Shown here one piece after another: positions 9,887-36,079 of a DNA stretch of 64,000 nt. A model generated the notes under the pieces. That model had not been told where the DNA came from, made no database searches, and worked only from the letters and a program-made list of their open reading frames with translations. This stretch comes from Acidobacteriota bacterium (lineage in GTDB: Bacteria > Acidobacteriota > Terriglobia > Terriglobales > Acidobacteriaceae), in contig JAKAFB010000001.1 in assembly GCA_021818105.1 (NCBI GenBank), positions 65,902-129,901 on the forward strand, in the 5' to 3' direction. The translations under genes and the position numbers were made by a program. Every line of letters starts with the position of its first letter. Within the stretch, counting starts at the first letter, position 1.

Positions 9887-11589
<1,703 letters not shown>

Positions 11590-11593
<4 letters not shown>

Positions 11594-11823
11594 GACCGAA
11601 TACCATCCTTGTCGGACGTTACCTCCGAAGGCCCTGTCGTCGCAAGTCGATTCTGCTTCTTGATTTCGGCCAGATATTCCCGCACCAGCGCAGGGATGAT
11701 TACGTTGTCCAGCCAGGATTTGAGGGCGGGGTCGAGCCGCTTTCCAACACTCGAAGACCGTGCGGGGCCAGGCCGCTTCTCCAGCGTAACCTCATTCGCG
11801 CTTTTAACATCCCTGGCTCCCAC
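11590..11823 (-). CDS. Small hypothetical protein coupled to the integrase (possible directionality factor)
   Basis: GTG at 11823 after GAGG; ATGA overlap with integrase start; helix LDPALKSWLDNVIIPALVREYL. Confidence 0.55.
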
Positions 11824-11892
11824 GCAAGACCTCAAGGCGCGGTTGCTGCCCGCCCGTGTGGGGACAATAAGAAGATTTCTCACGCGGAGGTT

Positions 11893-11933
11893 ATGCTTTT
11901 TCGGGGGAGGGGTATGCAGATCCTGTATAGCCC
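11893..11933 (-). promoter_or_regulatory. ICE box copy 1 (upstream of integrase operon)
   Basis: Minus strand ATCTGCATACCCCTCCCCCGAAAAAGCAT (11921-11893); 26/29 identical to 13241-13269. Confidence 0.65.
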
Positions 11934-12230
11934 CCGCTTTCCGGTATAAGCGGCTTCTTTCCAGAGGTTTACTTGTCGAAGTTCGCTCCTGTACACGCTG
12001 CGGCACCACACGCCACTCCGATTTCGAATGCGCTGGCGAACGTCATGCTGACCTGGACCTGCAGCAGAATGATCCCCCTTGTCCTGCGTGATTTCTCAGG
12101 CACCGCGAGAGAAAGGCAGGCTGCGCCCGGCGGCGGGAAGATTCTGCTTCGCATAGGCCAGCAGGACACAACAATTCAAGAAAGTGAGCCTGGCCATGCG
12201 CCCTGCGGATTTCGGCTCCCCCTGAAGGTC

Positions 12231-12245
12231 CCCCCGAAAAAGCAT
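12231..12245 (+). promoter_or_regulatory. ICE box partial copy 2 (upstream of the N6/N4 MTase)
   Basis: CCCCCGAAAAAGCAT, identical 15-mer to copy 1. Confidence 0.55.
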
Positions 12246-12332
12246 CTTCCCGCCTTGGGAGCAGCCATCTCTCGCGCCCTCCGGGAGTATGCCCCGAGAG
12301 ATCACTCCGGGAGCACAAAGGAGATCAGAGTC

Positions 12333-13067
12333 ATGCAGGTTACGAATCCAACTCAGCGTACATTCTTCAACCGCATCCTTCAGGGCGACTGTATCGAGAT
12401 CATGCGCCAGATGCCCGCAAACAGCGTGGATTTCATCCTCACCGATCCACCGTATCTCGTAAACTTCCGCGACCGCACAGGACGCACGCTGCAGAACGAC
12501 ACCAACGCAGACTGGCTCAGACCGGCGATGAAGGAGGCATGCCGGGTGCTCAATAACAATCGTTTGATGTTGTGCTTCTACGGCTGGCCGCGTGCGGAGA
12601 AGTTTCTGGAAGCATGGCGTGAAGCGGGTTTCCGGCCCGTTGGGCACCTGGTGTTCCGCAAATCCTACACGACGAAGGCGACCGAGTTTCTCAAGTATCA
12701 GCATGAGCAGGCGTACCTGCTGGCCAAGGGCCGTCCGGCGATGATTGGCGGGCCAGTCGCAGATGTGCAGCGGTTACTCTACACCGGCAATAAGCTCCAT
12801 CCCACGCAGAAAGCTGTCATGTCGCTGATACCGATCATCCGCGCATACTCGCTTCCCGGTGATGTGGTGCTGGATGCGTTCTGTGGCAGCGGCTCAACCT
12901 GTGCAGCTGCGCTGCTCACGGGCCGCAGGTACATCGGCATCGAATTGGACAACGATTACCAGAGCGCGGCAAGCGAGAGAATGACCAGGATCAGGGAGAG
13001 AATCGCAAGACGGTCCTCTCCTTCCTTCCCGACCGAGTGCATTGTATCCACACCGCGGCGCGCGTAA
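12333..13067 (+). CDS. Orphan DNA N6-adenine/N4-cytosine methyltransferase (beta class)
   Basis: ILQGDCIEIM, ILTDPPY (motif IV), HPTQK, VLDAFCGSGST (motif I), YIGIELD; ATG at 12333. Confidence 0.92.
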   Translation: MQVTNPTQRTFFNRILQGDCIEIMRQMPANSVDFILTDPPYLVNFRDRTGRTLQNDTNADWLRPAMKEACRVLNNNRLMLCFYGWPRAEKFLEAWREAGFRPVGHLVFRKSYTTKATEFLKYQHEQAYLLAKGRPAMIGGPVADVQRLLYTGNKLHPTQKAVMSLIPIIRAYSLPGDVVLDAFCGSGSTCAAALLTGRRYIGIELDNDYQSAASERMTRIRERIARRSSPSFPTECIVSTPRRA

Positions 13068-13227
13068 AGGCGAGCCATCTCCTGAGTTGTTGTCCTCGCC
13101 GCCTTGACTCGCGCCACGGCGTGGTTTTTCTTTGCTGGCCATGTCGGGAAGGAATGGTTTGGCAGCTCCTCGACTGCCATTCAGAGCGTTTCCACTCTGC
13201 CTTCGCAGCCCTGCCAGCGCGAAGTTC

Positions 13228-13269
13228 GAGGGTATGCGGAATCTGCATACCCCACCCCTCAAAAAGCAT
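13228..13269 (+). promoter_or_regulatory. ICE box copy 3 (upstream of T4SS operon) with palindrome GGGTATGC-N7-GCATACCC
   Basis: ATCTGCATACCCCACCCCTCAAAAAGCAT at 13241-13269; 8-bp inverted repeat at 13229-13251. Confidence 0.65.
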
Positions 13270-13352
13270 TGGACGGTGATTTCACCAGCTCCTACATTCG
13301 CTCCACATCCTTACTACCGGCGCTCACCGGAATACGCGAATGAGGAGTATCT

Positions 13353-13682
13353 ATGCAGAACACACTTCCAACCAAACCGGCCCTGTGGCGACGGCACATT
13401 CCCGCCGGCAGATTGACCATCCCCGCCCTGTTGCTTCTTGCCGCTGCACCTGTGTATGCGCAGGCTGCAGGCGGAAGCCCATGGGAGAACGCGGTCCAGG
13501 TGCTGGAACAGGCGTTCACGGGACCAATTGCCACCGGCCTCAGCCTGGTCGCCATTGTTGTGGGCGGCCTGATGTTTGCCTACGGCGAAGGCCAGTCCAA
13601 GCGCATGCTCGCCGGGATCATCTTCGGCATCGGCATGGCCGTGGGCGCGGTGAACTTTATGGCTTGGCTTTTTCCGGGGTAA
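13353..13682 (+). CDS. virB2: TrbC/VirB2 family pilin
   Basis: AYAQ-like signal then GGSPWENAVQVL...GPIATGLSLVAIVVGGLMFAYGE. Confidence 0.9.
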   Translation: MQNTLPTKPALWRRHIPAGRLTIPALLLLAAAPVYAQAAGGSPWENAVQVLEQAFTGPIATGLSLVAIVVGGLMFAYGEGQSKRMLAGIIFGIGMAVGAVNFMAWLFPG

Positions 13683-13738
13683 TCGACGGCAGGTCCCACC
13701 ACAACCCAATCACCCGATAGGCGGAAAGGAGGTTCGAG

Positions 13739-14062
13739 GTGTCAGAGGGCGGCTCACAACGTGGTGCACGCAGAAACAAGGTTTTCAAAGCGATGAACCG
13801 CCCGCTGACCGTTCTCGGTGCGGAGAGGCGATTGTTCTTTGTGGCGCTAATCGCGGGAGGCGCGGTCTTTTCGCTCATGCACTCGCTGGTCGGCGGCATC
13901 GTGCTGTTCATCGTGGGCGTCGCCATCGCCCGCATTGCGACGAAGCACGACGTGGAGATTCTGCGCGTGCTCTTCAACTCCGGCAAGTTCTGCCGCCGTT
14001 ATGACCCCATGAAGCCCGATGCGCTGGAGATCGCCGTCAGGAGGCGCGATGGTCAGAGTTGA
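13739..14062 (+). CDS. virB3: VirB3/TrbD family T4SS protein
   Basis: VFKAMNRPLTVLGAER, two TM helices, position between VirB2 and VirB4; AGGAGG RBS. Confidence 0.85.
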   Translation: MSEGGSQRGARRNKVFKAMNRPLTVLGAERRLFFVALIAGGAVFSLMHSLVGGIVLFIVGVAIARIATKHDVEILRVLFNSGKFCRRYDPMKPDALEIAVRRRDGQS

Positions 14063-16523
14063 TGCCATTAGAAAGGACTGGAAAGAAGCTGGCTCGTTTC
14101 CCGCACAGGTCAATCTATACGGGTTCTGGGACGAACACACTTTCCTGACCAAATCCGGCGACCTCGGCAGGGTGCTGAAGATCGGCGGCACCGACTACGA
14201 GAGCCTCGATCACGCCGGCAGGAATTATGCGGTCAAGCGCCTCGAAGCCGCCCTGCGCTCACTCGATGACAGGTGCCGCCTCTACCAAATCCTGTTCAAG
14301 CACAACCGGCCCGCAATACCCCATGCCGAGTATGACAGCCCGCTGGTCCGCGCTGCCGTGGAGCAGCGCGCGGCCTTTCTTCAGTCCAAAGCCGACCACC
14401 TATATTCCATCGAAATTGTTTGGGCAGTGATGGTCGATGGCAGCTATGCGAAGACCGGCCTGCTACACGCGCTCGGACAGTTGCCGAAACAGCCCGCCGC
14501 GTCGCTCGGCGACCTGCGCTCCCTGCTCTCCGGTAACAAGGAACGGACTCTGATCTATGAGCAGATCGAGCGCGACCGCCTGCGGTTGCAACAGAAAATC
14601 CAGAGTTTGAGTGGGCAGTTGAACGACCTGATGACGGTCGAACTGCCAGGGGCGGAAGAGACATTCCGCATACTGCGCCGTCTCGTGAACTTCCGCCCCT
14701 CGAAGATTCAGGATGCGAGGCTGTATAGCGCGCGGCGCATCGATTACCAGCTATGCGACTCGGAGCTTGAAGCGCATCGCGGCTACCTGCGCATGGACGA
14801 CGACTACCTGCGCGTGCTCACGCTGAAAGAGCTTCCGTCTGAGACGCGGCCTCTGCTGTTGCAGGGGCTGTTCGACATTCCCGCGAATTTTCACGTTGTG
14901 ACCGAGTGGCACCCGGTAGACAACGCCAGGGCGCGGAAAGAGATTGCCAGCCGTCGCCGGCATCACCACAACTCCAAGACCAGCTTTGTCTCGAACCTTC
15001 AGGACCGGCAGAATAGTGGGCCGAAAGACGAGCTGGTCGATGACTCGAAGGAGGCCGCGATCGCGGAACTGGGCGCGGCACTGACTGCGCTCGGTATGGA
15101 GAGCAAAAGCTTCGGCGAGTTCACTCTCTCGGTCGTGATCTACGACGAGGATCGCGGTAAGGTGGAACACGCCGTCGCTGAGTTCCAGAAACTGTTCACA
15201 CAGCATGACGGCTTGCTCTACGAAGAACGCTACAACCTGCTCAATGCCTTCTTTGCGACCATCCCAGGTAACCGACAGTTCAACCTGCGCAGGCAGTGGG
15301 CGCTCAATTCGAATTATGCCGACCTGTCGTTTCTCTTTACCATCGATAGCGGCAGCCAGTGGAACCCGCATCTGGAGCGGGAATACCTGCTGGCCCTCGA
15401 ATCGACGCACGGCACGCCGTATTTTTTGAACCTGCACTCCGGCGACGTGGCCCATGCGCTGCTGCTCGGCGCAACCGGGAGTGGCAAAAGCTTTTGCGTG
15501 GCCGCCACATTGCAGGCCGCGCAGAAATACGAGCCTCTGACCTTCATCTTCGATCTCGGCGGCAGCTACGAAACGCTGACACGCGTTTTTGGTGGAACCT
15601 ATCTCAACGTCGGCCTCAAAAATCCCGGCTTCACCATTAATCCGTTCTCGCTCGCAGCCACCAACGAGATCCGGAATTTTCTGTTTCTCTTCCTGCGCGT
15701 GCTGATCGAGTCCGGCGGACGCTATGAGCTGACGCCGGAAGACGAAAAGGCGCTGTTCGCCGCGATCGAGCGGGCTTACAAGCTGCCTGCAGCAATCCGG
15801 ACGCTGACCAATGTGGCGTCCATCCTCGGGCCCTTGGGGGAGCGGCTGCACCGCTGGACACAAGCGGGACAGTTCGGCCATCTCTTCGACAACGTGGAGG
15901 ACACGCTCTCATTCAGCCGGTTCCAAACCTTCAACTTCGATGGCTGGTCGGAGTACCCCGACGTGCTGGAGCCGTTGCTGTTCTATGTCCTTCAGCGCGC
16001 GTCGTCCGAGATTGAAAAACCCGCCAACACAGCCACCTTCAAGATGTTCGTGATCGACGAAGCGTGGATGTTTCTCAAGAACAAAACCATCCGCGACTGG
16101 ATTGTCCGGGCTGAGAAGACCTGGCGGAAAAAGAACGCCGCCATGATCCTGGCTACGCAGTCCGTGGTGGAACTGGCGGCCTCGGACTTGCTGCACATCG
16201 TCAACGAGTCCTGCCCGAACAAGATCTTCCTCGCCAATCCCAACATCGACCGCAGGCTGTACGCGGACATATTTCAGTTGAACGACACGCAGCTTGAGTT
16301 GCTGGAATCGCTCGTGCCCAAGCGCGAGCTGCTCGTGATCCAGCCACGCGGCACCAAGAAGCTGGTCTTGGACGTAGACGCCCTGACCTACTGGACCGCC
16401 ACCAACAACGCCCGCGACAACCTGCGCAGGCAGGACTATTTTTCTCGTTTTGGAGCAGAACAGGGGTTGCTCCAACTTGCCCACGGCTACCCCAATCCAA
16501 CCCACTCCGAGGTGATCCGATGA
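14049..16523 (+). CDS. virB4: VirB4/TrbE T4SS ATPase
   Basis: Walker A GATGSGKS, FIFDLGGSY, Walker B FVIDEAW, RKKNAAMILATQS. Confidence 0.95.
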   Translation: MVRVDAIRKDWKEAGSFPAQVNLYGFWDEHTFLTKSGDLGRVLKIGGTDYESLDHAGRNYAVKRLEAALRSLDDRCRLYQILFKHNRPAIPHAEYDSPLVRAAVEQRAAFLQSKADHLYSIEIVWAVMVDGSYAKTGLLHALGQLPKQPAASLGDLRSLLSGNKERTLIYEQIERDRLRLQQKIQSLSGQLNDLMTVELPGAEETFRILRRLVNFRPSKIQDARLYSARRIDYQLCDSELEAHRGYLRMDDDYLRVLTLKELPSETRPLLLQGLFDIPANFHVVTEWHPVDNARARKEIASRRRHHHNSKTSFVSNLQDRQNSGPKDELVDDSKEAAIAELGAALTALGMESKSFGEFTLSVVIYDEDRGKVEHAVAEFQKLFTQHDGLLYEERYNLLNAFFATIPGNRQFNLRRQWALNSNYADLSFLFTIDSGSQWNPHLEREYLLALESTHGTPYFLNLHSGDVAHALLLGATGSGKSFCVAATLQAAQKYEPLTFIFDLGGSYETLTRVFGGTYLNVGLKNPGFTINPFSLAATNEIRNFLFLFLRVLIESGGRYELTPEDEKALFAAIERAYKLPAAIRTLTNVASILGPLGERLHRWTQAGQFGHLFDNVEDTLSFSRFQTFNFDGWSEYPDVLEPLLFYVLQRASSEIEKPANTATFKMFVIDEAWMFLKNKTIRDWIVRAEKTWRKKNAAMILATQSVVELAASDLLHIVNESCPNKIFLANPNIDRRLYADIFQLNDTQLELLESLVPKRELLVIQPRGTKKLVLDVDALTYWTATNNARDNLRRQDYFSRFGAEQGLLQLAHGYPNPTHSEVIR

Positions 16524-17275
16524 ACCGCACGCCCATCTTGCCGCTCGTTCTTGGCCTGGTTGCGACCGTTGCCCACGGCCAGCAATCGGCCCGCATCGTC
16601 CATTACCACCAGAATGATATCGTGAGCATCCGCGCCCGGATGCACTACACCACGCTGATCGAATTGCCTGCGACCGAAAAGATCATGGAAGTCGCCACCG
16701 GCGATAAGGACTTCTGGATCATCGATGCGGTTGGTAATTATTGCTTTCTGCATCCCGCCCAGGCAGGCATTCACAGCGACTTGAATCTGATTACCGACAA
16801 GGGGAATGTCTATTCGTTCTTGCTGGATGACGACGAATCCGCCGAGCCAGATCTGAAGGTGGTCATCGAGCCGAGCGGCCCATCCTCTCTTGCCGCGGCC
16901 AATGGTGCGACAAAGTGGGTGCCTGCATCGGAAGTCACGTCCATTGAGGCACAGGCCAAGGCCATCGGCCAGCACGACGCCAATGCGGTCGAAACATTCC
17001 GCGCCAACTATCCGACTCAGAAATTGAAGTTCGATTACAGCTACAAGAACAAACCGCCGTTCAACGTTGCGGCCGTCTACCACGACGACAAATTCACTTA
17101 CATCAAGTCCTCCGCCTCTGAAAAGTTTGCCGTTTACGAAGTGAAAGACGGCAAACCCGACCTCATCAATTACCGGTTGCAGGACGACACCTACGTCATT
17201 CCCCAGGTGGTGGACAAAGGCTACCTCCAGATCGGCAAGCACAAGCTCACCTTCGAGCGGAAAGACGCCAGGTGA
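16520..17275 (+). CDS. virB9: VirB9/TrbG outer-membrane complex protein
   Basis: Signal peptide, YTTLIELPATEKI, NLITDKGNVYSF, VYHDDKFTYI; ATGA overlap. Confidence 0.88.
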   Translation: MNRTPILPLVLGLVATVAHGQQSARIVHYHQNDIVSIRARMHYTTLIELPATEKIMEVATGDKDFWIIDAVGNYCFLHPAQAGIHSDLNLITDKGNVYSFLLDDDESAEPDLKVVIEPSGPSSLAAANGATKWVPASEVTSIEAQAKAIGQHDANAVETFRANYPTQKLKFDYSYKNKPPFNVAAVYHDDKFTYIKSSASEKFAVYEVKDGKPDLINYRLQDDTYVIPQVVDKGYLQIGKHKLTFERKDAR

Positions 17276-18531
17276 GAACCATGCCGGAAGAGAGAACAAC
17301 TCCTGAAGTGAAAACAGAGGCGTCCTCGCCGGAGGTGCATCCGCCGAGCGCGACGCTCCGCGACAAGCGCGTGCTGCCCGAAGGCGTCGTGCCCAAACAG
17401 GCGCAGGCGTATGTGGTCGCCGGACTTGCGCTGTTGATTCTGATGGCTGTGCTGTTCTCGAAGAACCATGCGAGGACCGCGCCGAAGGAATTGGCGCCTC
17501 CTCCGGCCTCTGTGTCGAATGACATAAATCAGCAGCGGATTCACGAACTGGAGCAGGACTTGAGCGCCGACCAGCGCCAGATTCAGCAGCAGGCCCAGGC
17601 GCAGAAGTCCGGCGCGACGGCAGCGCCGGGAAGCGCAGCCTCTGCGGGTGGGACCGCTCAGACCAGCGATGTTAATCCTTCCGGACCGTCGCAGGCGCCT
17701 GCGCAGCCTCCCCGCGATCCGATTGCCGATGCGGAAAAGGCTCTGGCCTTCAAATCCCGGTTCGCTTCGAACCTCGTGAGTCCAGTTGAAGCGACACCTC
17801 CCGCCGCGACCGGCGCGAGCGCACAGCCGAATCCATCTCCCGCGAATCGCGCTCAGAGTTCACAGGGGCAGACTTCTGCTCCGCAGCCCGCCGATGCCGC
17901 CGGCAAACGCGCGCCCGAGGTCAACATCGACGCGGCACACGGCCGCCCCTATGTGATCTTCGAGGGCACGACCATCGATACTGTGCTGACCAACCGACTC
18001 GACGGCGAGTTCGCCGGGCCGGTCAAGGTGATGGTGACCAATCCCGTCTACAGCCGCGACGGCCAGCATGTGCTGATTCCAGCAGGAACCTTCCTTCTGG
18101 GCGACGTTCAGAAGATCTCGAACTTTGCTCAAAAGCGGCTGGCCGTGACCTTCCACCGCATGATCATGCCGGATGGATACTCGGTCGATCTCGACCAGTT
18201 CCACGGCCTCGACCAGATCGGCGACACCGGACTCAAAGATAAAGTCAACCACCATTATGTGCAGATTTTCGGAGCGTCGATTGCGCTGGGCGTGATCGCA
18301 GGCGCTGCCGAAGCCACCACCTACGGCAACGGTTATACCTTCAGCGGTCCCTCCATGTACGAGCAGGGAGTGGCGTCGAGCCTGTCGCAATCGAGTGCGG
18401 ACGTGCTTGACCGCTTCGTCAATATTCTGCCCACGATCACCATCCGCGAAGGCCACCGGATCAAGGTTTACATCACCCAGGACATGCTCCTGCCCGCCTA
18501 CGACGACCATGACATGCCGGGGGTGATGTGA
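17272..18531 (+). CDS. virB10: VirB10/TrbI
   Basis: N-terminal TM, Pro/Ala/Gln-rich linker, GTTIDTVLTNRLDG, RLAVTFHRMIMPDG, PTITIREG. Confidence 0.92.
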   Translation: MRTMPEERTTPEVKTEASSPEVHPPSATLRDKRVLPEGVVPKQAQAYVVAGLALLILMAVLFSKNHARTAPKELAPPPASVSNDINQQRIHELEQDLSADQRQIQQQAQAQKSGATAAPGSAASAGGTAQTSDVNPSGPSQAPAQPPRDPIADAEKALAFKSRFASNLVSPVEATPPAATGASAQPNPSPANRAQSSQGQTSAPQPADAAGKRAPEVNIDAAHGRPYVIFEGTTIDTVLTNRLDGEFAGPVKVMVTNPVYSRDGQHVLIPAGTFLLGDVQKISNFAQKRLAVTFHRMIMPDGYSVDLDQFHGLDQIGDTGLKDKVNHHYVQIFGASIALGVIAGAAEATTYGNGYTFSGPSMYEQGVASSLSQSSADVLDRFVNILPTITIREGHRIKVYITQDMLLPAYDDHDMPGVM

Positions 18532-18671
18532 TGCGCTTTGCTTTGCTCGCGCTTCTCGTGCTGGTGGCTGGCTGCGCCTCCCCAGCGCCACCGAAGAAGC
18601 CCTCACCCTATCGCTACACAACCAGCGCGCCGCTGCGTTTGCACGGCGCTCATCGAAAGGAAACCGAATGA
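18531..18671 (+). CDS. 46-aa lipoprotein (VirB7-like or entry-exclusion-like); below ORF-track cutoff
   Basis: MRFALLALLVLVAGC lipobox; TGATG overlap with virB10 and ATGA overlap with the next gene. Confidence 0.75.
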   Translation: MRFALLALLVLVAGCASPAPPKKPSPYRYTTSAPLRLHGAHRKETE

Positions 18672-19537
18672 AGCCCATGAAATTATTCGCTCCGATTTTC
18701 GCTCTCACTCTTGCGCTCGCACCTGCGGCGCACGCCCAGTTCGGCTCGGGCATCGTCTTCGACCCCACCCAGAGCGCTCACGCTATTGAACAGATCGAGC
18801 AGGGTTTTCAGCAACTCCAAACAGCGGAGCAGATCTACACCACTGCCTACCAGACGATGAATCAGGTCATCGCCGCCTACAACCTTGCTTACCAGATGTC
18901 GCGGATGCCGCAGAATCTCGCCAGCAGGTATCAGTCCGATTTTGCCATGTGGACGAATTTTTCGTCCGCCTCCGTCCCTGACACCTACGGCAACACCTCG
19001 GCGTGGCTCAACGCACTCGATCTCGGAAATTCCACGCGAGCCACGTCCGCCTATAACGCATCCGTCATTCCGCTCGAAAGTTATCCCGGCGGTGCTCTGT
19101 CGCAACAGGATGCCAACACCCAGGCGACCATCAAAAACCAATACGCCTCATCCGAACTCGGACAGGCCACGCTGACCAATTCGCTGTCGACGCTGGGAAC
19201 GATTCGTTCCGACTCCGAGACCTTTCAGCAGAAGCTCGCCAACCTCGAATCCGACACCTACTCGACCGACCCTACGCAGCAGACCTCGAACGCCCTGCTC
19301 GGCAAGATCAATTCCGCGACCATGCTTCAGATTCATTCGCAGCAGGATGCCAACCAGATCCTCGCTGCCGAGGCGGCGCAGCAGGCGCTCGATGAGAAAG
19401 ACCAACTGGACGAGCGCAATCGGCTCATCAACCAGTCGATCTACTTCCAGCAGAACTTTCCCACGCTGATCGAGAGCATGACCTCCGGCGTGAGCGATGC
19501 CATTCACTCCGTCTCCCTTTCAACGACAGGACACTGA
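18668..19537 (+). CDS. VirB5/TrbJ-like pilus-tip protein
   Basis: Signal AHAQ, GIVFDPT motif, Gln-rich helices; precedes VirB6. Confidence 0.75.
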   Translation: MKPMKLFAPIFALTLALAPAAHAQFGSGIVFDPTQSAHAIEQIEQGFQQLQTAEQIYTTAYQTMNQVIAAYNLAYQMSRMPQNLASRYQSDFAMWTNFSSASVPDTYGNTSAWLNALDLGNSTRATSAYNASVIPLESYPGGALSQQDANTQATIKNQYASSELGQATLTNSLSTLGTIRSDSETFQQKLANLESDTYSTDPTQQTSNALLGKINSATMLQIHSQQDANQILAAEAAQQALDEKDQLDERNRLINQSIYFQQNFPTLIESMTSGVSDAIHSVSLSTTGH

Positions 19538-19540
19538 ACC

Positions 19541-20365
19541 ATGCAGCCAAACCCCTTTGCCGCCTTAAACCAGGCGATCAGCCAACTGATTACCTCCAAC
19601 AGCGCCACATTGCAGGCCACGGGGCTCAACATCTTCCGTGGCCTGGCCGTGATCCTGATTACCTGGTTCGGCATCAAGTCCGCGCTCTCTGCCACGCAGG
19701 GGCACGGTGGCGGATTTCACTTCGCAAAGTTTGCCGACCTGATTCTGATGATCTCCTTTGGGTTGGGGATGCTGACGTATTACTCGTCGCCGATTCCAGG
19801 CGTGGGTTACAGCTTCTCGGACCTCGTGACGAAGGAAGCCCAGAACATCTCTAACCAGATCGAGTCCGACCAGACGCAGCAGATCGCCAACACCATCGTC
19901 AACGCGGAAGAGCAGCTCGGCGCGCCTCCAGGCAAGTACAGCATCCTCGAAGACCTGACCTACCTTCTGATCGCGGTGATTCTCGCCGCCATGGAAGCCG
20001 TGGCCTTCGCCGTCATTGCATACGGTCTGGTCGCCTCAGCGGTCTGCGTGCTGATCGGCCCGATGTTCATCCCATGGTTCATCGTGCCCAAGATGGACTG
20101 GCTCTTCTGGGGCTGGTTCAAGGCATTTATCGGCTTCAGCTTCTATCAGGTCATCGCTTCGGCCTTCATCTATGTCTTCGCCAAAGTGCTCACCGCGATG
20201 TTTCAGGTCATCGGCAAGATCAGCATCTCGAATGCGCTGACCGTCCTGCCCGTCCTCTTTATCACCCTTATGGTCTGCATCTACGGCCTGGTCAAGATAC
20301 CGGAACTGACGGGCGCGATTCTCAGTGGCCGCGCTGGAACCTGGGTCAACCCGATGGGGAGATAG
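19541..20365 (+). CDS. virB6: VirB6/TrbL inner-membrane protein
   Basis: Polytopic; IGPMFIPWFIVPKMDWLFWGW, KIPELTGAILSG. Confidence 0.88.
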   Translation: MQPNPFAALNQAISQLITSNSATLQATGLNIFRGLAVILITWFGIKSALSATQGHGGGFHFAKFADLILMISFGLGMLTYYSSPIPGVGYSFSDLVTKEAQNISNQIESDQTQQIANTIVNAEEQLGAPPGKYSILEDLTYLLIAVILAAMEAVAFAVIAYGLVASAVCVLIGPMFIPWFIVPKMDWLFWGWFKAFIGFSFYQVIASAFIYVFAKVLTAMFQVIGKISISNALTVLPVLFITLMVCIYGLVKIPELTGAILSGRAGTWVNPMGR

Positions 20366-20369
20366 CGTC

Positions 20370-21047
20370 ATGAAGAATACTTCGTTTCAAACGTCGGAAG
20401 CCGGACATAAATTCATCGAGCTATATGCGGAGCCTGTTGTCACCAATACATACCTGAAAATCGCGCTGCTGGTGCTCTCTGTCGTCGCAGTCGCCTTGTT
20501 TGCGTTCCTCTATCGAGCCGAGACCGCTGCCTCACGGCTGAAGCCGCTGGTCATCTCCATTTCGGACGTCGGGCGCGGCCAGGTGATGAACTATGACGAC
20601 TTCTCGAAGATCCCCGTAGACCGCGTGAGCAAGTATTATCTTGCCCGCTGGTGCCAGCTTTACTACGGACGCAATCACGCGACATTGCAGCGGGACTTCT
20701 CGCAGTCGCTCGATTTCTTTTCGAACCAGTTGCAGTCCGCCACTCTCCAGCGGGTGAACCAGCAGAAGACCTTGCAGACATTCCTGCTCGATCCGAGTGC
20801 GCTGGACGTGGACATCGAGATCGACGCCGTCAATCTCATCGATCTGCGCCAGCAGCCCTATAGCGCACAGATTCAGTTCGAGAAAATCTTCCGCTCGCCC
20901 GGCGACGGCCAGGAGCAGCGCCGCGAACGCTGGACCGCGAATGTTCTGTATAGCTTCCGCGATTCAGTACCGAACGCCATGCTGCTGACCAACCCGCTTG
21001 GTCTGGTCATCAGCTACGTCCACGAAGACCAGGCATTCGGGAGCTGA
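20370..21047 (+). CDS. virB8: VirB8/TrbF family protein
   Basis: Single TM followed by NTF2-like domain ending NPLGLVI. Confidence 0.88.
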   Translation: MKNTSFQTSEAGHKFIELYAEPVVTNTYLKIALLVLSVVAVALFAFLYRAETAASRLKPLVISISDVGRGQVMNYDDFSKIPVDRVSKYYLARWCQLYYGRNHATLQRDFSQSLDFFSNQLQSATLQRVNQQKTLQTFLLDPSALDVDIEIDAVNLIDLRQQPYSAQIQFEKIFRSPGDGQEQRRERWTANVLYSFRDSVPNAMLLTNPLGLVISYVHEDQAFGS

Positions 21048-21052
21048 GAACC

Positions 21053-21439
21053 ATGCGACCCAAGAAGCCCATCCTGCTCTACTGTGCCGACCGCGAATTA
21101 CTCTCCGCGACTGCGCTCGCACTGCGTCTCCATCCCTACGAAGTCACGGCTATCGAAGATAGCCGGAACGCTGCGGCGCTCATGATGGCAGGCAATACGG
21201 AGCTTGTCTGCGGCATTCTGATCCACGCACAGCAGGGCGATCCCGCAGGCAGGCTAATTCACCGCCTGCTCGAATCGGATTTGCACGTTCCACTTCTGCT
21301 GGTAGACCGCGCCGGCGATCTCGCGCCAGTCCGCTACGCGGACATGGTGCTCTATGGGCGCAACATCTCGATGACCCATATTCTTGGCGCCCTCAATGTG
21401 CTGTGCACACGAAAGCGCGGACCACGGAGTGCGGCATGA
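21053..21439 (+). CDS. Degenerate single-domain receiver (pseudo-response regulator) with basic RKRGPR tail
   Basis: CheY-like alpha/beta pattern MRPKKPILLYC...VPLLLVD...RKRGPR, lacking the acidic pocket, phospho-Asp and Lys. Confidence 0.6.
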   Translation: MRPKKPILLYCADRELLSATALALRLHPYEVTAIEDSRNAAALMMAGNTELVCGILIHAQQGDPAGRLIHRLLESDLHVPLLLVDRAGDLAPVRYADMVLYGRNISMTHILGALNVLCTRKRGPRSAA

Positions 21440-21453
21440 ACGATCCGATTCTT

Positions 21454-21762
21454 TCAGGCAGCCAGTTTGAGCTTAGGCCGAAGGCCAAGCCGCGAAGCGA
21501 TGGTCAGCAGCATATCCAGGGAGAAGTCTTTCCATTCGCCGCGCTTGATCTTCGAAACGCGCGGCTGCGAGATACCAAGCTCTCTGGCGGCTACTGCCTG
21601 TGTCCAGCCTTTGGCCGCGATGCGTTTCTCGATACGGATCATTACCTCCGCGCGCATCTTGAGAATGGCCGCTTCATCTTCATCAAAGCCGAGGTCAAGA
21701 AAGATATTGCTGCTGCCTTTGGTGATTCTGTTGTCGTCCCAACGGGAATCGGTCTTCTTCAT
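21454..21762 (-). CDS. HigA-like XRE-HTH antitoxin
   Basis: SSNIFLDLGF, WTQAVAARELGISQPRVSKIKRG, FSLDML. Confidence 0.88.
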   Translation of the reverse strand: MKKTDSRWDDNRITKGSSNIFLDLGFDEDEAAILKMRAEVMIRIEKRIAAKGWTQAVAARELGISQPRVSKIKRGEWKDFSLDMLLTIASRLGLRPKLKLAA

Positions 21763-21765
21763 CTT

Positions 21766-22086
21766 TCATTCTCCAATCAGCTTGTATCGCCGTCTCGCAA
21801 GCTCAAGATCGTTCTGACTCGTCTTCCGGGTTTTCTTCTCGAAGGCGTGAAGCACATAAATAACGTTCGCAAACTTCGCAACGTAAATTACGCGCCAGGC
21901 TCCATTGAGGTGAACCCGAATCTCATAGGCGCCTTTGCCCACGTCCTTCAATGGTTTGAAGTCAACCGGCATCAGCCCGTTCTGCACCCGGAGAAGCTCA
22001 TCGCCAAGCGCCTTGCGAACCTCCGCTGGAAACTCCCGCAGATCGTCCCGGCTGCTGCCAATGAACAAAATGGGCTTCGTTTCCAT
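21766..22086 (-). CDS. RelE/HigB (Gp49-like) toxin
   Basis: FIGSSRDDLREFP, DFKPLKDVGKGAYEIRV, YVLHAFEKKTRKT. Confidence 0.9.
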   Translation of the reverse strand: METKPILFIGSSRDDLREFPAEVRKALGDELLRVQNGLMPVDFKPLKDVGKGAYEIRVHLNGAWRVIYVAKFANVIYVLHAFEKKTRKTSQNDLELARRRYKLIGE

Positions 22087-22093
22087 TCAGGCA

Positions 22094-22102
22094 ATTATAC
22101 CA
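22094..22102 (-). promoter_or_regulatory. Extended -10 promoter (TGGTATAAT) of the TA operon
   Basis: Minus-strand TATAAT at 22099-22094, 7 nt before the toxin ATG. Confidence 0.6.
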
Positions 22103-22166
22103 ATACTTATCTAAATCCAACAGCCGTCTGCAAGTCGAAATTTATGGAAATGCCTGAGGGGCAGCC

Positions 22167-23771: not shown

Positions 23772-24199
23772 GCCTCCGCTCCTTAACGGTGTTGGCGCTT
23801 TCCTCGCGGAAGAGAGCAGACCTCGACCTTCGCCCTGTCCTTATCCCCTCGACATCCAGATCGCGCAGCTTCGCCTTCCGCGTAGTCGCCCAGGAGCGGA
23901 CCCTCGCACAGTACCGGCAAGAAGGCAACGATGCGGAAGATTGCCGAACGTGGTTCACCCACTCACCGCTGGTCTACGCCGACCGGAAAACGCGACAGAA
24001 CGGACGACTCCGGTACGCAGCTTGCGAATCAAGCGCATCGTTGCCCAGACCCCTTCAGACGGATGTTTCCGTAGAGCGCCCTCTCTCCCGGACTTTCCCA
24101 TGTCTCACTCGGTCACTCGCTCGGTGCTTATCCCGCGCCCTGCGGCAGCTGCGCGGCTCTGCTTCGCACTACGTGCGCCCTTACGGGTTTCGGCTTTCA

Positions 24200-24249
24200 G
24201 AAAATCTTTTCGGCAAAACTCCGCAAAGAACGCGGACGAAAAGATTTTC
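24200..24249. repeat. Compound hairpin upstream of ssb
   Basis: Perfect 13-bp IR GAAAATCTTTTCG/CGAAAAGATTTTC enclosing a 5-bp IR TCCGC/GCGGA. Confidence 0.8.
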
Positions 24250-24406
24250 CGAACCTTCCGAAAATGCGCCGCTTGGCCTTGGGAGCGGGGCACATTCACC
24301 ACCCCAGCGCGCAGATTGCGCGCGCTCGGGGACCCCGGTACTCGCGTCGCTTCGCGCAGGAGTGTCCCGAGTAAGAACAGGGCAAATCCAAACAGGAGTT
24401 AAAGCA

Positions 24407-24856
24407 ATGGCACTCTATACCAACACCGTCACCGTGAAGGGTTACCTAGGCAAGGACGCTGAGACCTTCGCCACCAAGAACCAGAAGACAGCCGTCGTCC
24501 TGTCGCTCGCCACCAAGTCCGGCTATAAGGACCAGCGGACGAACGAGTGGGTGAACCGCACCGAATGGCACCGCATCGTGGCTTTCGGCAAGCCCGCCGA
24601 TTACGCGAAGGGCCTGAAGAAGGGCGACTACGTCGAAGTCGAAGGCGAACTGCGCTCGACCGAGTACGAGAAGGAAGTCGGGCGGGGCAAGAGCAAGGTC
24701 AAGGTCACCTTCCGCGACAAGGAAGTGCGCGCCAACACCGTGAAGAAGCTCGCAGGACCGGCGAAAGGGGAGAATCTCGACGCCGGGGTCCCCACGGACA
24801 GGTCTTCGTCCGTGGGGTGGGACGCCGATCCCATCACGGAGGAGGACGCCGCGTAA
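24407..24856 (+). CDS. ssb: Single-stranded DNA-binding protein
   Basis: NTVTVKGYLGKD, SLAT, TEWHRIVAFGK, KGDYVEVEGELRS; AGGAG RBS. Confidence 0.93.
   Translation: MALYTNTVTVKGYLGKDAETFATKNQKTAVVLSLATKSGYKDQRTNEWVNRTEWHRIVAFGKPADYAKGLKKGDYVEVEGELRSTEYEKEVGRGKSKVKVTFRDKEVRANTVKKLAGPAKGENLDAGVPTDRSSSVGWDADPITEEDAA
24779..24826 (+). repeat. Palindromic coding-sequence insertion, copy 2 (in SSB tail) with perfect 6-bp flanking direct repeat
   Basis: GACGCC-[36-bp core 24785-24820; perfect 10-bp stem CCCCACGGAC/GTCCGTGGGG, loop AGGTCTTC]-GACGCC. Confidence 0.88.
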
Positions 24857-24887
24857 GCGGCGTTCTCCTCCCATTGGGAGGTGTGAC

Positions 24888-25286
24888 ATGAATGCACTCT
24901 TTACCAATAGCGTCCTTTTACGGGGCTTCCTCGCCAACGATGCCGAGGCTCCATCGTCCGACCATATCCAGAATGATTCGTTCGCGGTCCTGCTGCTGGC
25001 GACCGTCTCCGGTGTCTGGGATCTCGGTTCCAACGAGTGGCATCCACGCACCGACTGGCACCGCATCATCTGCCCCGGCCCCTTCTTCTGCGGCATGGTG
25101 CGTGGGATGAGGCGTGGTGACTATCTCGAAATCGAAGGCGAGCTGCGCGCGCTCGAACAGGAACGTGGCGTGGTCGTTGCCGGTGAACGCTTCCCAGTGA
25201 AGCACTCGACCTATGCCGTCCATGCAATCCGCATTCAGCGGCTGGACCGTCCCGATGCGCTGGTCGATTTCGGCGAGGACGGCTAA
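24888..25286 (+). CDS. Second, divergent SSB-like OB-fold protein
   Basis: NSVLLRGFLAND, LLLAT, RTDWHRII, RGDYLEIEGELR. Confidence 0.8.
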   Translation: MNALFTNSVLLRGFLANDAEAPSSDHIQNDSFAVLLLATVSGVWDLGSNEWHPRTDWHRIICPGPFFCGMVRGMRRGDYLEIEGELRALEQERGVVVAGERFPVKHSTYAVHAIRIQRLDRPDALVDFGEDG

Positions 25287-25684: not shown

Positions 25685-25921
25685 ATGTTGAACGAAGACC
25701 AGTGTATGGAGCGCACCCCCGACCTCATCGCCAAAGTTCGCCAGATGCGTGAGGCCGCGGAGAAAGAAATGAACCGCTTTACGCGGCTGGCCGACTACGA
25801 CGTGCGTCGTGTTGTCGGCCAGAAGCCTGCGGCTGTTGTAGAGCCAGGCGCCGCGCAAGCAGTCATCGAGTTTTCGCCGGACGTTACGGAGCCCGGCGAT
25901 GACGGTGAGGCACAGTCATGA
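25685..25921 (+). CDS. Hypothetical protein
   Basis: GAGG RBS; 2-nt gap upstream and ATGA overlap downstream. Confidence 0.6.
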   Translation: MLNEDQCMERTPDLIAKVRQMREAAEKEMNRFTRLADYDVRRVVGQKPAAVVEPGAAQAVIEFSPDVTEPGDDGEAQS

Positions 25922-26964: not shown

Positions 26965-26967
26965 ACG

Positions 26968-28577: not shown

Positions 28578-30623
28578 GTGAGCCTTATGAATTTTCGCGC
28601 GCATCTACAACGCCTCACACATCCACTGATCGAGTATCGAATCCTGCTCTCGTTCGGACTGAGCGCGGCCTGCGGCATAATCCTGAGTAGCCTCTACCCC
28701 ATCAACATCATGAATCCGATGCTGCACCTGATCGCGTTAAAGCAGCCTCTAGTCTTTCATGCGCTGGTCTGGAGCTACGATCTGTTTCTCTACAGCACGC
28801 CGTTCCTGATTCTGTCCACGATATTCTCGCTCGCCTACATCCACATATATAGGAGAGAGTCGGACGAAGCAGCCGGATCACTCCCACCGTACCCCGATCC
28901 GCGATCGAGACAGGACCTGTCTCTGGTCGTCGGCGAGTTGCACCGGCAGCTTGTCCTCAGGCCCAGCCCGGCCCCGCAGTGGCTCACCATACCGGAATGC
29001 GGTCTCTATACCGGGACCTGCATTGTGGGCGCTACCGGATCGGGTAAGACTCTGGCCCTGGTCCTTCCGGCCATGCGCCAGTTGTTCGCCTACTGCGCCA
29101 ACGATTCCGAACGGAAGCTCTCCGGCGTCGTGCTCGAAGTCAAGGGCGATCTCTGCCGCCAGCTCCGGCGCATCCTCAAGTGGTGCGGACGGGAGCAGGA
29201 TTATGTCGAGGTCTCACTGGACGGCAACATCCGCTACAACCCGCTGAACAATTCGCTCGATCCCTACGCCCAGGCGTTCAACATCGCCTCTATCATTACC
29301 AGCATCTGGGGCAAGGGCAAGGAACCCTTCTGGCAGCAGTCCTACACCGATCTCGTCCGGTATGTGATTCTGCTCCACCGCGTCCGCGATGGATACCTGA
29401 CGCTGGTCGACCTCTTCCGCACCGTCATCAGCGCGGGGCGTCTGGAAGAGATGCTGATTGAGGTGGGATCGCGTTTCAGCCGGACGCAGTACATCGGTAT
29501 TGGCAAAAACGCCTACCAGAAATATGAATCCGCGCTGTCGCCGCTCGGATTCGAGTGGAACAAGGATGCGAAGCAGTACCTTGCCGTATGGACCGAGGAG
29601 TTGGAACGGCTGCTCGTTCATGAGACAGATGCTGAGTTCTTCATCTACACCCGGAAGCCATACATGCTGGAGCAATATGACCGCTTCGACAGTGTGCGGT
29701 ACTGGTATTGGGAGCACTGGAAGTTCTTCCGCTCCGAAGTCAAGACCTCGATCATCCAGGGCATTGTGGTCTTCCTGTCGCTATTCGAGACCGATCCTCA
29801 GGTGCGCCGCGTCTTCTGCCCGCCGAAAGAACTCTATGAAGGCAAGCCATGCGCCGGCGATCCCAAAGGCCGCGTCCTGCCGCCGTTCGAGGAACTGATT
29901 GAGATGGGTATGGTCGTCGGCCTGAACTTTCCCGTAGCCCTGAACCCGGCGCTGGCCAAAACCATCGGCACGCTGATGAAGATCGACTACCAGCGTGCGG
30001 TCCTGCTGCGCATCCTAAAGATGGACGCGGAACCGGAGAAGCACTTCCGCCCCACCGTGTTTCTCTGCGACGAATACCAGAACTTCGCCACGGTTGGGGG
30101 CGATAACCCGACTGGCGATGAGAGATTCCTGTCCATCTCACGCCAGCCTAAGTGCGTTCCCATTGTTGCCACGCAAAGCATCTCCAGCCTGAAGGACGCT
30201 CTGCCTAATGAAGGAGTGAAAACACTGCTGCAGGCATTCCGCACCAAGGTATTCCTCACGACCTCCGATCCCGAAACTGCGCGCTACGCATCGGAGCTTT
30301 GCGGCAAGGCGGACCGGACACGGATCAGTTACACCGTCTCCGAGTCCTCGACCAACGCCAACGTTGGCTGGCTTTCCGGCCGCACCGCATCGAGCAAAGG
30401 CTCCGTCTCGGCTTCCAAGCAGTACCAGAAACACAAAGAGCCGCTCTTCGAGGAAAAGGTCTTCTTCGATCTCAAAAATGCTCAGGCGGTCGTGGTTGCC
30501 TTCGATGGCGTCGCCCCGTTGCTTCCGACCTACTGCTATCTCAAGCCCTATTTCCTGCCCGTCACCATGACCTGGTTCGAGCAGGAGCGGATCGGCTTCG
30601 ATCCCCGGAGGATACCTGCGTGA
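28578..30623 (+). CDS. virD4: Type IV coupling protein (VirD4/TraD/TrwB family)
   Basis: Two N-terminal TMs, Walker A GATGSGKT, VLEVKGD, Walker B LCDEYQNF, SRQ...IVATQS. Confidence 0.9.
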   Translation: MSLMNFRAHLQRLTHPLIEYRILLSFGLSAACGIILSSLYPINIMNPMLHLIALKQPLVFHALVWSYDLFLYSTPFLILSTIFSLAYIHIYRRESDEAAGSLPPYPDPRSRQDLSLVVGELHRQLVLRPSPAPQWLTIPECGLYTGTCIVGATGSGKTLALVLPAMRQLFAYCANDSERKLSGVVLEVKGDLCRQLRRILKWCGREQDYVEVSLDGNIRYNPLNNSLDPYAQAFNIASIITSIWGKGKEPFWQQSYTDLVRYVILLHRVRDGYLTLVDLFRTVISAGRLEEMLIEVGSRFSRTQYIGIGKNAYQKYESALSPLGFEWNKDAKQYLAVWTEELERLLVHETDAEFFIYTRKPYMLEQYDRFDSVRYWYWEHWKFFRSEVKTSIIQGIVVFLSLFETDPQVRRVFCPPKELYEGKPCAGDPKGRVLPPFEELIEMGMVVGLNFPVALNPALAKTIGTLMKIDYQRAVLLRILKMDAEPEKHFRPTVFLCDEYQNFATVGGDNPTGDERFLSISRQPKCVPIVATQSISSLKDALPNEGVKTLLQAFRTKVFLTTSDPETARYASELCGKADRTRISYTVSESSTNANVGWLSGRTASSKGSVSASKQYQKHKEPLFEEKVFFDLKNAQAVVVAFDGVAPLLPTYCYLKPYFLPVTMTWFEQERIGFDPRRIPA

Positions 30624-31525
30624 GTTTTGAAATCATCATCCCGTTTCTGAAACCCATCGAGTCTTTGCTGTTGGATCAGACCATCTCCGAAATCATGGTC
30701 AATCCCGATAATTCCGTCTGGATCGAAGAGGCGGGCCGTATCAAGGCTATGCCGGATATTCGCTTCGAGGAAGACGCGCTCGCCACTGGCCTGGAAGTAA
30801 TTGCCAACAAGTTCGGCAAGAAGCTCGATGCCGATTCGCCCATTCTGAACCTGCGTCTGCCCGATGGCAGCCGCATGGCCGCGCTCATACCACCTGTCGT
30901 CAATCCCTATCCTCTGCTGACCATTCGTAAGTTCACTTCACGGAACTTCAACATCGAGGATCTGATCGAGCGTAGAACATTGACAGAATCACAGGCGGAG
31001 ACTTTAGCTGCTGCCGTGCAACGTGGCGACAACCTTTTGATCTCCGGTGCCACGAGCTCAGGCAAGACAACACTCGCGAACGTGCTGGCCGGTTGCATCC
31101 CCGACAGCGAGCGTATCCTGATTCTCGAAGATGTAGCGGAGCTCCATATCAGGAAACCACACGTCATCTCCGCCGAGGCGCAGCTCGACACTCACAAGAA
31201 CCAGATTGGATTCGCCGACCTGCTCAAGGCTGCTTTGCGCCATAGGCCTGACAGGATCATCGTGGGCGAGATTCGCGGACCGGAAGCGAGGGTCTTTCTT
31301 GACGCCCTCAATACTGGACACCGTGGTTCGTTGACGACCATCCATGCCAACAGCGCTGAGGATGCATTACGCCGCCTAGCGCAGCTTGCCATACGCGGTT
31401 CAGGCGGGGTCTCCCTGCTCGACGCTGAAGACGAATGCAGAAGATCCATCGATATGGTCGCGCACGTCACGAACCAGGATGGGTGGCGTCACATCACAGA
31501 AATCAGGATGGTAGCTATCGGGTAG
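30620..31525 (+). CDS. virB11: VirB11/TrbB/CpaF secretion ATPase
   Basis: EIMVNPD, GATSSGKTT, LEDVAEL, LRHRPDRIIVGEIRG, GHRGSLTTIHA; GTGA overlap. Confidence 0.92.
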   Translation: MSFEIIIPFLKPIESLLLDQTISEIMVNPDNSVWIEEAGRIKAMPDIRFEEDALATGLEVIANKFGKKLDADSPILNLRLPDGSRMAALIPPVVNPYPLLTIRKFTSRNFNIEDLIERRTLTESQAETLAAAVQRGDNLLISGATSSGKTTLANVLAGCIPDSERILILEDVAELHIRKPHVISAEAQLDTHKNQIGFADLLKAALRHRPDRIIVGEIRGPEARVFLDALNTGHRGSLTTIHANSAEDALRRLAQLAIRGSGGVSLLDAEDECRRSIDMVAHVTNQDGWRHITEIRMVAIG

Positions 31526-31527: not shown

Positions 31528-32157
31528 CTATTGCCCGGCAACATCCCAGCCCGCATTGGTCAACTGCAAATCCGCGGTCTCCTCGGTTTTTGAGATGCCG
31601 CCGACAGTCGTCCGGATATCACCAAATGCCCGTTGCACGTCGGCGTGTGTGGCCCAGGGTGCCAGATCCGCAATCTTATAGGTATAGGTGACCTCGCTTT
31701 GCGTATACGGTCCTGTCGCTGCTGGTCCCGACCACCTGACGATGGAATCAACACTCTCATCTCCATAGCAGAAAGCGCTGCTCTGACCCCAAACACCGGG
31801 TTTCATCTGGAAGTATTGTCTTCCCTCATCCGTCAGCTCATAACGTCTCACCGATCGTGGCGCCGATGCTCCCAGAGCGCCCATCATCCCCTGGATCACC
31901 GCTTTCGTGTTGTTCCCACGCACCAGGCCGGCTTGTTCCAGCGCCGCCATCTGCGGTGCAGCGCCGTATTGGTCCTTCAACCCGGACGTGGGAATATCCA
32001 TCGGAAACGTCTGCGCGAAGTACGTGCATGCCTGGCCGTGTTTGGCAAGATACCGATTGATCGCGGTCGTGAAATTGGCGGCGTTCGGCTTCCTTGTGTC
32101 ATTGCAACCGCCGAGTATCAAGAAAACCGCTACCAGAAACACGATGGACGTGCGCAT
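31528..32157 (-). CDS. Hypothetical lipoprotein
   Basis: MRTSIVFLVAVFLILGGC lipobox; GGAGG RBS. Confidence 0.75.
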   Translation of the reverse strand: MRTSIVFLVAVFLILGGCNDTRKPNAANFTTAINRYLAKHGQACTYFAQTFPMDIPTSGLKDQYGAAPQMAALEQAGLVRGNNTKAVIQGMMGALGASAPRSVRRYELTDEGRQYFQMKPGVWGQSSAFCYGDESVDSIVRWSGPAATGPYTQSEVTYTYKIADLAPWATHADVQRAFGDIRTTVGGISKTEETADLQLTNAGWDVAGQ

Positions 32158-32197: not shown

Positions 32198-33145
32198 TCA
32201 GACGAACCCGCGGCTGGGACTAAGCGTCGTTTTCTGCCGCTCACTTCTGAGCCTTTCCGTCTTTACCCAAAGCAGATTCTGAAAATCATTGACCGCCTGA
32301 GTACGATTGTCTCGTCGCACGAAGATCCCACTCTTCATCGTCAGCAGCTTGTCCGCCAGCGACCGGAACGCAATCCCATCCCGTGTCAGATGCGACCAGC
32401 CACTGCTCACTATTGCAATGCCCTTGCCAGCCACCGCCATGTGGATGGCTTCGTGGAAGCTGAAGGGCTGCGCAATCACGTTCAGTTCGATACCGAGAAC
32501 TTCGAAGTAGGCATTGATTTCTTTGCGGACTTCGGGCAGTGCGTGTTCCGAGACACCGATCAGCGGCTCCCGATCGAGATCCTGTGGAGAGATACTGTCA
32601 CGGCGAAAGAGACGGTGCCGCGCCGGAATGCACAGCATCACGTCTTCATCCAACAGTTCTCGGGTTTCAAGGTCCGAGTAGTTGATGGGAAGATAGCCTA
32701 CTCCTGCCTGATACTGACCTTCCAACACACCCCGGACAATGCCTATCGTGTGCAGGCTGGTCAGCCTCAGGACTGGGTCACCGGGCCGCTCGAAATGAAG
32801 GTCAGAGACAATCCTGAGCAACTCGGGGCAGAGAAACGACGAATAGGCGACATCAAGAAAGCCTATCTGGCGCCGGGCTACGTTGCGTGCCCGCTGTACC
32901 GCCCGATCGAAGCGATCGACGGAGTGAAGGATCTCCTCAACGAATCCTTTTCCGGCTTCTGTCAAGCGCGAACCTCCGTGCCAGATATAGAAGAGCCTCA
33001 CACCCAATGTACTTTCAACATGATGTATCCTGCGGCTCACCGCCGGCTGGGTCATGTGCAGGCGCGACGCTGCGCGGCTCTCGCTTCCTTCCTGTGCCAC
33101 CGCAATGACGCATTTCAGATCGTAGATGGTCACGTCGTCCGACAT
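32198..33145 (-). CDS. LysR family transcriptional regulator
   Basis: AASRLHMTQPAVSRRI, LTEAG, substrate-binding domain. Confidence 0.92.
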   Translation of the reverse strand: MSDDVTIYDLKCVIAVAQEGSESRAASRLHMTQPAVSRRIHHVESTLGVRLFYIWHGGSRLTEAGKGFVEEILHSVDRFDRAVQRARNVARRQIGFLDVAYSSFLCPELLRIVSDLHFERPGDPVLRLTSLHTIGIVRGVLEGQYQAGVGYLPINYSDLETRELLDEDVMLCIPARHRLFRRDSISPQDLDREPLIGVSEHALPEVRKEINAYFEVLGIELNVIAQPFSFHEAIHMAVAGKGIAIVSSGWSHLTRDGIAFRSLADKLLTMKSGIFVRRDNRTQAVNDFQNLLWVKTERLRSERQKTTLSPSRGFV

Positions 33146-34663: not shown

Positions 34664-34701
34664 AGCATGTCGCTCCTCCGGTCCCAGGAAAATGCAACAG
34701 G

Positions 34702-35859: not shown

Positions 35860-36079
35860 AACTCACCTCGCGGCATGGAGCCGCATGAAGACATTTCTCC
35901 TGTGGGAACAGCCGTTTGCAACTGCTGAGTGAAGTGACGATTCCAAGAGAAAATCACTACCTCGCGCCACGGATTGCGGGGCGCGGCAGTGCTTGGGCAG
36001 CGCGGATTTTTAAGCGATGAGTGCATCAGTGATCGCAAGTCGTGCAATCTCGCCGGGAACGGCATTGAAAGCGATGAAG

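Follow-up and report, generated by a model that had tools for sequence, protein, structure and literature searches.

A shared box upstream of the excision and mating-channel operons of an ICE from Acidobacteriaceae, most likely activated by an ICE-encoded LysR-type regulator

The stretch of DNA analysed here (the window, 64,000 nt) includes the left end of an ICE at a tRNA-Met gene, where two inverted repeats, boxes A and B, precede the excision operon and the virB operon, respectively. We propose, with a probability of about 0.8, that A and B are the bipartite sites of the LysR-type regulator carried by the same ICE, which would switch both operons together. As judged from the sequence, they constitute a shared regulator box coupling excision with transfer, most likely LysR-activated. 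The features concerned are collected in Table 1.

Table 1. Features of the ICE relevant to boxes A and B, with positions in the window.
Feature	Position	Strand	Basis or remark
tRNA-Met, integration site (attL side)	9887..9963	+	ARAGORN, Rfam; 3' half overlaps integrase C-terminus
Large serine recombinase (integrase)	9920..11593	-	Pfam PF00239, PF07508, PF13408
77-aa ORF, candidate directionality factor, first gene after box A	11590..11823	-	Position only
Putative -10 (TATTGT), excision operon	11864..11869	-	23 nt after box A
Box A, proximal part (putative activation site, ABS)	11893..11909	-	Right half-site GCAT 21 nt past that of the palindrome
Box A, distal palindrome (putative recognition site, RBS)	11910..11932	-	T-N11-A kept, arms 6/8
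Long hairpin before MTase, copy C (12231-12245) in 3' arm	12104..12276	+	DNA fold, covariation
Orphan N6/N4 DNA methyltransferase (MTase)	12333..13067	+	Pfam PF01555
Box B, distal palindrome (putative RBS)	13230..13252	+	T-N11-A, arms 8/8, centre 52 nt before -10
Box B, proximal part (putative ABS)	13253..13269	+	Abuts -35 position
Putative weak sigma70-like promoter TGGACG-N17-TACATT, virB operon	13270..13298	+	-10 kept in sister loci
T4SS operon virB2-B3-B4-B9-B10-(B5-like)-B6-B8	13353..21047	+	Pfam; B5-like without family match, named by position
Second hairpin leader copy, before ssb (24410)	24103..24293	+	nhmmer E 2e-33, model from MTase leaders
Coupling protein and VirB11	28587..31525	+	Pfam
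Lipoprotein-like gene directly after lysR	31528..32157	-	Travels with lysR
LysR-type regulator, candidate binder of A and B	32198..33145	-	Pfam PF00126 and PF03466; covaries with box class

Leftward from box A, the 77-aa ORF is followed by the serine integrase; rightward, the order is MTase, box B, virB operon, C5 MTase, ssb, two possible relaxase-like genes, coupling protein and VirB11, after which the lipoprotein-like gene and lysR occupy the minus strand. The 77-aa ORF gave no Pfam or NCBIfam match and only unnamed Atlas clusters; its homologues precede related serine integrases, and its slot suggests a directionality factor. Apart from the tRNA, an Rfam scan of 9000-36000 at E ≤ 1 gave just two matches, both below threshold. 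The 3' half of tRNA-Met is repeated twice in degenerate form beyond the window (G000, C27:133868 and C27:139612), which suggests that tandem accretion or decay of right ends may have taken place; since these copies are perhaps decayed right ends, the ICE copy in the window may no longer excise. A Gp49-like toxin and HTH_37 antitoxin pair (21454-22086, minus) is located between the pseudo-receiver gene and the C5 MTase, and the ORF at 21403-22170 (plus) is probably its shadow. Two adjacent genes without family match (25918-28008, plus) precede the RHH-like gene and the coupling protein and might be an unusual relaxase pair, the nearest named Atlas cluster of the first being Replic_Relax (0.88, a lead only). 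The ssb gene is followed by a divergent ssb-like paralogue (24410-25286, plus; ~40% identity), as also in sister ICEs, and a 49-nt repeat (88%) is present at 23068-23116 and 24777-24825 and recurs on contigs C65 and C67.

A sequence-only reading of the window had reported that 11921-11893 (minus) and 13241-13269 (plus) are identical at 26/29 nt, and this match is real: it is contained in an inverted pair of 40 nt (11893-11932 and 13230-13269, 83%), and controls stayed below it. Inverted 29-nt matches never exceeded 21 nt when the region was resampled 60 times under a first-order Markov model, and never exceeded 22 nt in 60 random 1760-nt windows of the genome. The imperfect or perfect palindrome seen to extend the two copies was recovered as GGGTATGC-N7-GCATACCC, with arms identical at 6/8 in A and 8/8 in B; because the spacer is 7 nt, the palindrome is ATGC-N7-GCAT, that is, T-N11-A. 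A matrix trained on ten sister sites, the window's own sites excluded, ranked B first (34.2 bits) and A second (25.9) among all sites of the 3.6 Mb genome, ahead of a third-ranking site at 20.0. The spacings of 70-88 nt to the next start also hold (A 70 nt, C 88 nt, B 84 nt), except that the start behind A is the GTG of the 77-aa ORF (11823-11590) and not that of the integrase, which is 300 nt away.

Both boxes are bipartite: in each, the centre of a T-N11-A palindrome precedes a -10 hexamer of the form TAnnnT by 52 nt, and a further half-site follows 21 nt on. In typical LTTR promoters the RBS is located near -65 and the ABS near -40; both window boxes carry T-N11-A, with the distal site, under the start position assumed below, near -65 and a weaker proximal one at the -35 element, a geometry that is LysR-type as far as sequence pattern can tell. 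The virB promoter matches the consensus at 8/12 positions against a scanner threshold of 9/12, and the sigma70 scanner listed neither this promoter nor that of A. The 74 distinct virB2 upstream regions share a conserved -10 and a weak -35, which reaches at most 4/6, a value found in 20/74 virB2 and 2/44 xis promoters. The palindrome is centred 51-52 nt before the -10 in most box classes, with a second centre at 30-31 in three of them; these distances become about -64 and about -43 if the start is assumed to lie 7 nt past the -10. The segment that separates the -10 from the start of virB2 contains a conserved sequence with short inverted arms (13320-13345, also in most sister virB2 leaders), which may form a leader structure.

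According to the available text of PMC11739112, LysR tetramers bind two sites, a distal one of high symmetry and a degenerate proximal one two turns away, and the same combination is seen in the ICE boxes. Classical LTTRs divergently adjoin their targets, whereas lysR is 19 kb from its target in the window's ICE; they also follow the T-N11-A rule, from which the commonest ICE box class departs. T-N11-A is present in 6/6 boxes of the window's class, 13/13 of class 4 and 8/11 of class 11, and in only 1/25 of class 2, the commonest.

VirB4 relatives were found in 29/151 family genomes searched, and the 79 named loci come mostly from Acidobacteria. By sequence alone, the 43 nt upstream of the virB2 promoters of 74 sister loci fell into 13 classes, seven of which have at least three members; the 74 regions are 75 less an unpublished one (L048, genome G168), which was excluded from the box-class and covariation counts and from all later ones, and on which no conclusion depends. 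At a threshold of at least 28 of 43 nt, the box of a locus's own class recurs upstream on the opposite strand in 46/71 loci (42/61 of those with at least 5 kb upstream), where it outscores every other-class box in 46/46 cases and is followed in register by TAnnnT, which was not used for finding the sites, in 44/46. A second box was not found at this threshold in 25/71 loci, which include short contigs and clusters that split related boxes. In support of the sequence-only reading on this point, the box is conserved in sister ICEs and stands at a fixed distance from their -10 hexamers.

The recurrence of the class before xis-int holds whatever the integrase family, the second box preceding either of two serine integrase clades or tyrosine integrases. 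All of the long ORFs tested behind it (17/17) matched PF00589, and 20 of 25 hand-picked small ORFs were HTH_17 excisionase-like, one further locus having a fusion. At L074:5833-7347 (minus) and in L047, the tyrosine integrase directly behind the box carries a fused HTH_17 domain of the excisionase-like type; at L038, L044, L080 and L085 (upstream, minus) the excisionase slot is occupied by a small ORF without Pfam match. In a more distant clade (VirB4 ~52%; L015-L020, L187, L189, L191), a palindrome is visible by eye before a similar -35/-10, the virB2 promoter again being weak, and LysR was present in five of the loci fetched, some of the genes lying upstream of virB2. The idea that same-class ICEs avoid one host was not supported, as 5/21 co-resident pairs in a hand count were of the same class against an expected fraction of about 0.19. 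No published account of this ICE family or its box classes was found in listings of the open-licence literature.

These sister loci also bear on an alternative offered by the sequence-only reading, namely that A and B are recombination sites which invert the MTase segment. The boxes are indeed inverted and flank the MTase, and the element encodes a recombinase; against inversion, the MTase has the same orientation in 40/40 loci with both boxes and in 53/53 overall, the A-B spacing varies sevenfold (1235 to 8697 nt), six loci have no MTase between the boxes, and the boxes follow LysR and precede unrelated integrases. No strand-changing joint was present in the contigs of four runs, which belong to one study and, being contigs, drop rare variants. 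We therefore consider inversion extremely improbable.

The regulator proposed here is the LysR, in a backbone where the sequence-only reading had recognized no activator. The LysR profile matches 52/60 downstream loci; of the eight without a match, seven have at least 13.7 kb of downstream read. Identity to the window's LysR is 68-82% in ICEs of the window's box class and 24-37% elsewhere. Covariation was measured in 41 ICEs whose full LysR lies in or close to its usual position: box similarity correlates with LysR identity at rho 0.58 (DNA-binding domain 0.65, AUC 0.91), and the highest value among 19 other ICE genes is 0.36 (adjacent VirB2 0.26); these covariation values and the discordant pairs below are not independent and hence carry no p-value. 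The binders suggested earlier, the RHH, pseudo-receiver and wHTH proteins, gave only 0.13, -0.01 and 0.13/0.07, and relA/relB were ruled out by covariation. Autoregulation of lysR was also rejected, no own box being present within 400 nt of lysR in 40 ICEs (best 18-23 of 43).

When ICE pairs were compared in which another gene was close and LysR far, the box class was shared in 2/30 pairs for VirB11, 0/24 for T4CP, 1/54 for relA, 0/42 for RHH and 0/37 for the pseudo-receiver; with the gene far and LysR close, it was shared in 9/12, 6/7, 3/3, 17/21 and 32/37, respectively. The lipoprotein gene was inseparable from lysR in one direction of this comparison; it diverges along with lysR and, speculatively, could encode an exclusion protein tied to the regulatory class. 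Parsimony required 12 class changes on the LysR tree (a quick tree), 11 for VirB11, 13 for T4CP and relA and 18-19 for VirB2/VirB4, and nearest neighbours agreed in class in 29/37 cases for LysR and 32/37 for VirB11, so that these two measures fail to separate LysR from VirB11 or T4CP and the discordant pairs do separate them. The closest VirB4 relative of the window's ICE (92%) has a different box class and a LysR of 29% identity. In a survey of 401 family genomes, the window's LysR clade was found in four, all with the box, and a box match in 2/397 others; the survey adds mainly to the negative side, as G209 duplicates a locus already in the set. One genome carries the window's box without its LysR, on a contig that ends in virB4, and no ICE gene lies within 10 kb of the single 3-mismatch match, in G261.

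The best alignment of the LysR DNA-binding domain is to 5xxp/1ixc, and the Q-P and R residues of its recognition helix are retained; we take these positions to have a role in recognition. Recognition-helix identity tracks box similarity between classes (rho 0.45), and more closely without class 4 (0.64). In class 4, a second LysR clade is present in 11/11 ICEs for which downstream sequence was available (for two of them the link is by genome alone), the LysR at the usual place being found in 9/11 and not found in 2/11. Since the helix of the second clade is closer to the window's (0.40 vs 0.22), and class 4 boxes are the closest to the window's class, the second LysR may be the true binder of class 4 boxes; its substitution, made post hoc, alters rho little (0.62 against 0.58). 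The second clade is located near the right end, often followed by a lipoprotein gene, in L174, L175, L176, L177, L115, L131 and other class 4 loci. L063, with a class-2 box and class-4 LysRs, looks chimeric.

The boxes could also be operators at which LysR represses, or needs a second ICE-encoded partner such as the additional LysR of class 4, or they could follow LysR merely as a marker of a linked binder in the right-hand module. The two LysR clades of class 4, the VirB11, T4CP and relA trees, which fit the classes equally by parsimony, and the seven ICEs with long downstream reads and no LysR would fit such a reading, as would the repression of basal transcription by effector-free LTTRs described in the available part of PMC11739112. 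Against these variants, the box lies upstream of the weak -35 and not over the -10, the discordant pairs go with LysR and not with its neighbours, and the recognition helix tracks the boxes even between classes. We regard these variants as unlikely and retain LysR as the probable activator acting through A and B.

The third half copy reported at 12231-12245 was confirmed: copy C is identical at 15/15 to the proximal half of A, and this 15-mer, allowing up to one mismatch, has no other occurrence in the 3.6 Mb genome. In the sequence-only reading, one regulator had been assigned three operons, the MTase included, with C as the third (half) site of a switch for excision, methylation and transfer. 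The part concerning excision and transfer stands with A and B, whereas the MTase is not supported as a third target. C has no palindrome and no TAnnnT in register, is kept at 15/15 in 11/16 class-2 ICEs, whose boxes and LysR differ, against 3/6 of the window's class, and pairs inside a covarying hairpin that also precedes ssb; moreover, in 6/46 loci with both boxes the MTase is absent from the interval. The identity of C with half of A is unlikely by chance, and half-sites have also been proposed for TraR (PMC11448139, in the text available); even so, we consider the three-operon model very unlikely.

In our reading, copy C lies outside the LysR circuit and forms one arm of the MTase/ssb hairpin leader. 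The hairpin spans about 170 nt (DNA fold -52.8 kcal/mol, z -4.3), and 11/20 consensus pairs show two-sided changes among 32 sequences. The leader model has one other copy in the genome, before ssb; across loci, the leader precedes the MTase in 52/53 (a partly circular count) and ssb in 42/43. Single-strand promoters (Frpo/ssi) are known to take the form of hairpins in front of orphan MTases and ssb, and the available parts of PMC7736820 and PMC11541004 describe a comparable long DNA hairpin, repeated before these genes and always on the same strand. The ICE hairpin is placed beside them by fold and gene position, not by sequence, and no clear TTGACA/TATAAT was seen by eye in its stem. By this analogy, the leader is probably a single-strand promoter used after transfer.

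Compared by arrangement and logic, the proposed system would work like TraR of Tn4371. TraR, the LysR of Tn4371-family ICEs (ICE-KKS102Tn4677), is a precedent for coupled excision and transfer; according to the available text of PMC11448139, it resembles the window's ICE in this (here proposed) coupling, in the reverse-oriented gene downstream of the mating genes and in an inverted repeat of the T-N11-A type that lies immediately before the -35 of the excisionase promoter, and it bound its own site only very weakly in vitro. As described there, TraR has a full site at xis and a half site at traG, and its transfer target is the coupling-protein gene (PMC11448139), whereas the window's ICE has the full two-part box at both promoters, with virB2 as the transfer target. 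In the present family, 40/41 full LysRs follow the mating genes in reverse orientation, the remaining one being in an inverted block. Cargo is read towards lysR by six ORFs in the window (33443-40941, Pfam-supported) and towards the regulator in 27/40 ICEs by a crude ORF call, which mis-scored the window itself. Tn4371-family ICEs have a tyrosine integrase, a TraI relaxase and the trb gene order, whereas the window has a serine integrase, no relaxase family match and VirB11 after the coupling protein. Unlike TraR, the window's family is hosted mostly by Acidobacteria, with serine or tyrosine integrases and many box/LysR classes.

The sequence-only reading had instead likened the boxes to those of SetCD (SXT/R391) and AcaCD (IncC). 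According to the text available of PMC4542580, these activators use a shared box over a poor -35 before the excision and transfer operons, a class II-like activation logic also proposed for the window's ICE. They are FlhCD-like heteromers with many targets, whereas the window's ICE has two palindromic sites in the genome and a LysR candidate (PMC4542580). No FlhC/FlhD-like pair was matched by Pfam or NCBIfam in the window, although Pfam profiles miss such proteins (PMC4542580). The geometry and the candidate regulator are LysR-type, so that the earlier assignment was not upheld.

Taken as a mechanism, the LysR tetramer would place one dimer on the distal T-N11-A palindrome, near -64, and its second dimer on the weaker site two helical turns on, against the poor -35. 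When LysR is made or induced, the two divergent weak promoters would be turned on together, that at A giving the directionality factor and the integrase for excision, and that at B the virB operon for the mating channel. Across the Acidobacteriaceae ICE family, joint diversification of box and regulator would have produced several specificity classes, between which integrase modules and T4SS genes were swapped.

We lean, by a narrow balance, towards viewing this family as a library, made by nature, of LysR-operator pairs that are mutually orthogonal and number at least seven, some of them off the T-N11-A rule. Regulator and box would have stayed matched over a distance of 19 kb despite recombination among the T4SS genes and the arrival of unrelated xis-int modules behind one and the same box, with one class perhaps relying on two LysRs. 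If true, the library would make LysR recognition readable as a code and supply transfer switches that are insulated. The matched classes are paired protein and DNA variants for studying the reading of DNA by the LysR helix, for which TraR offers one allele and weak binding in vitro. Donor-side control by the LysR boxes would be set apart from a probable recipient-side control by the MTase/ssb hairpins. The analysis names a testable on-switch for ICEs that form a common family in a soil phylum for which genetic tools are scarce: the expression of one gene should trigger both excision and mating.
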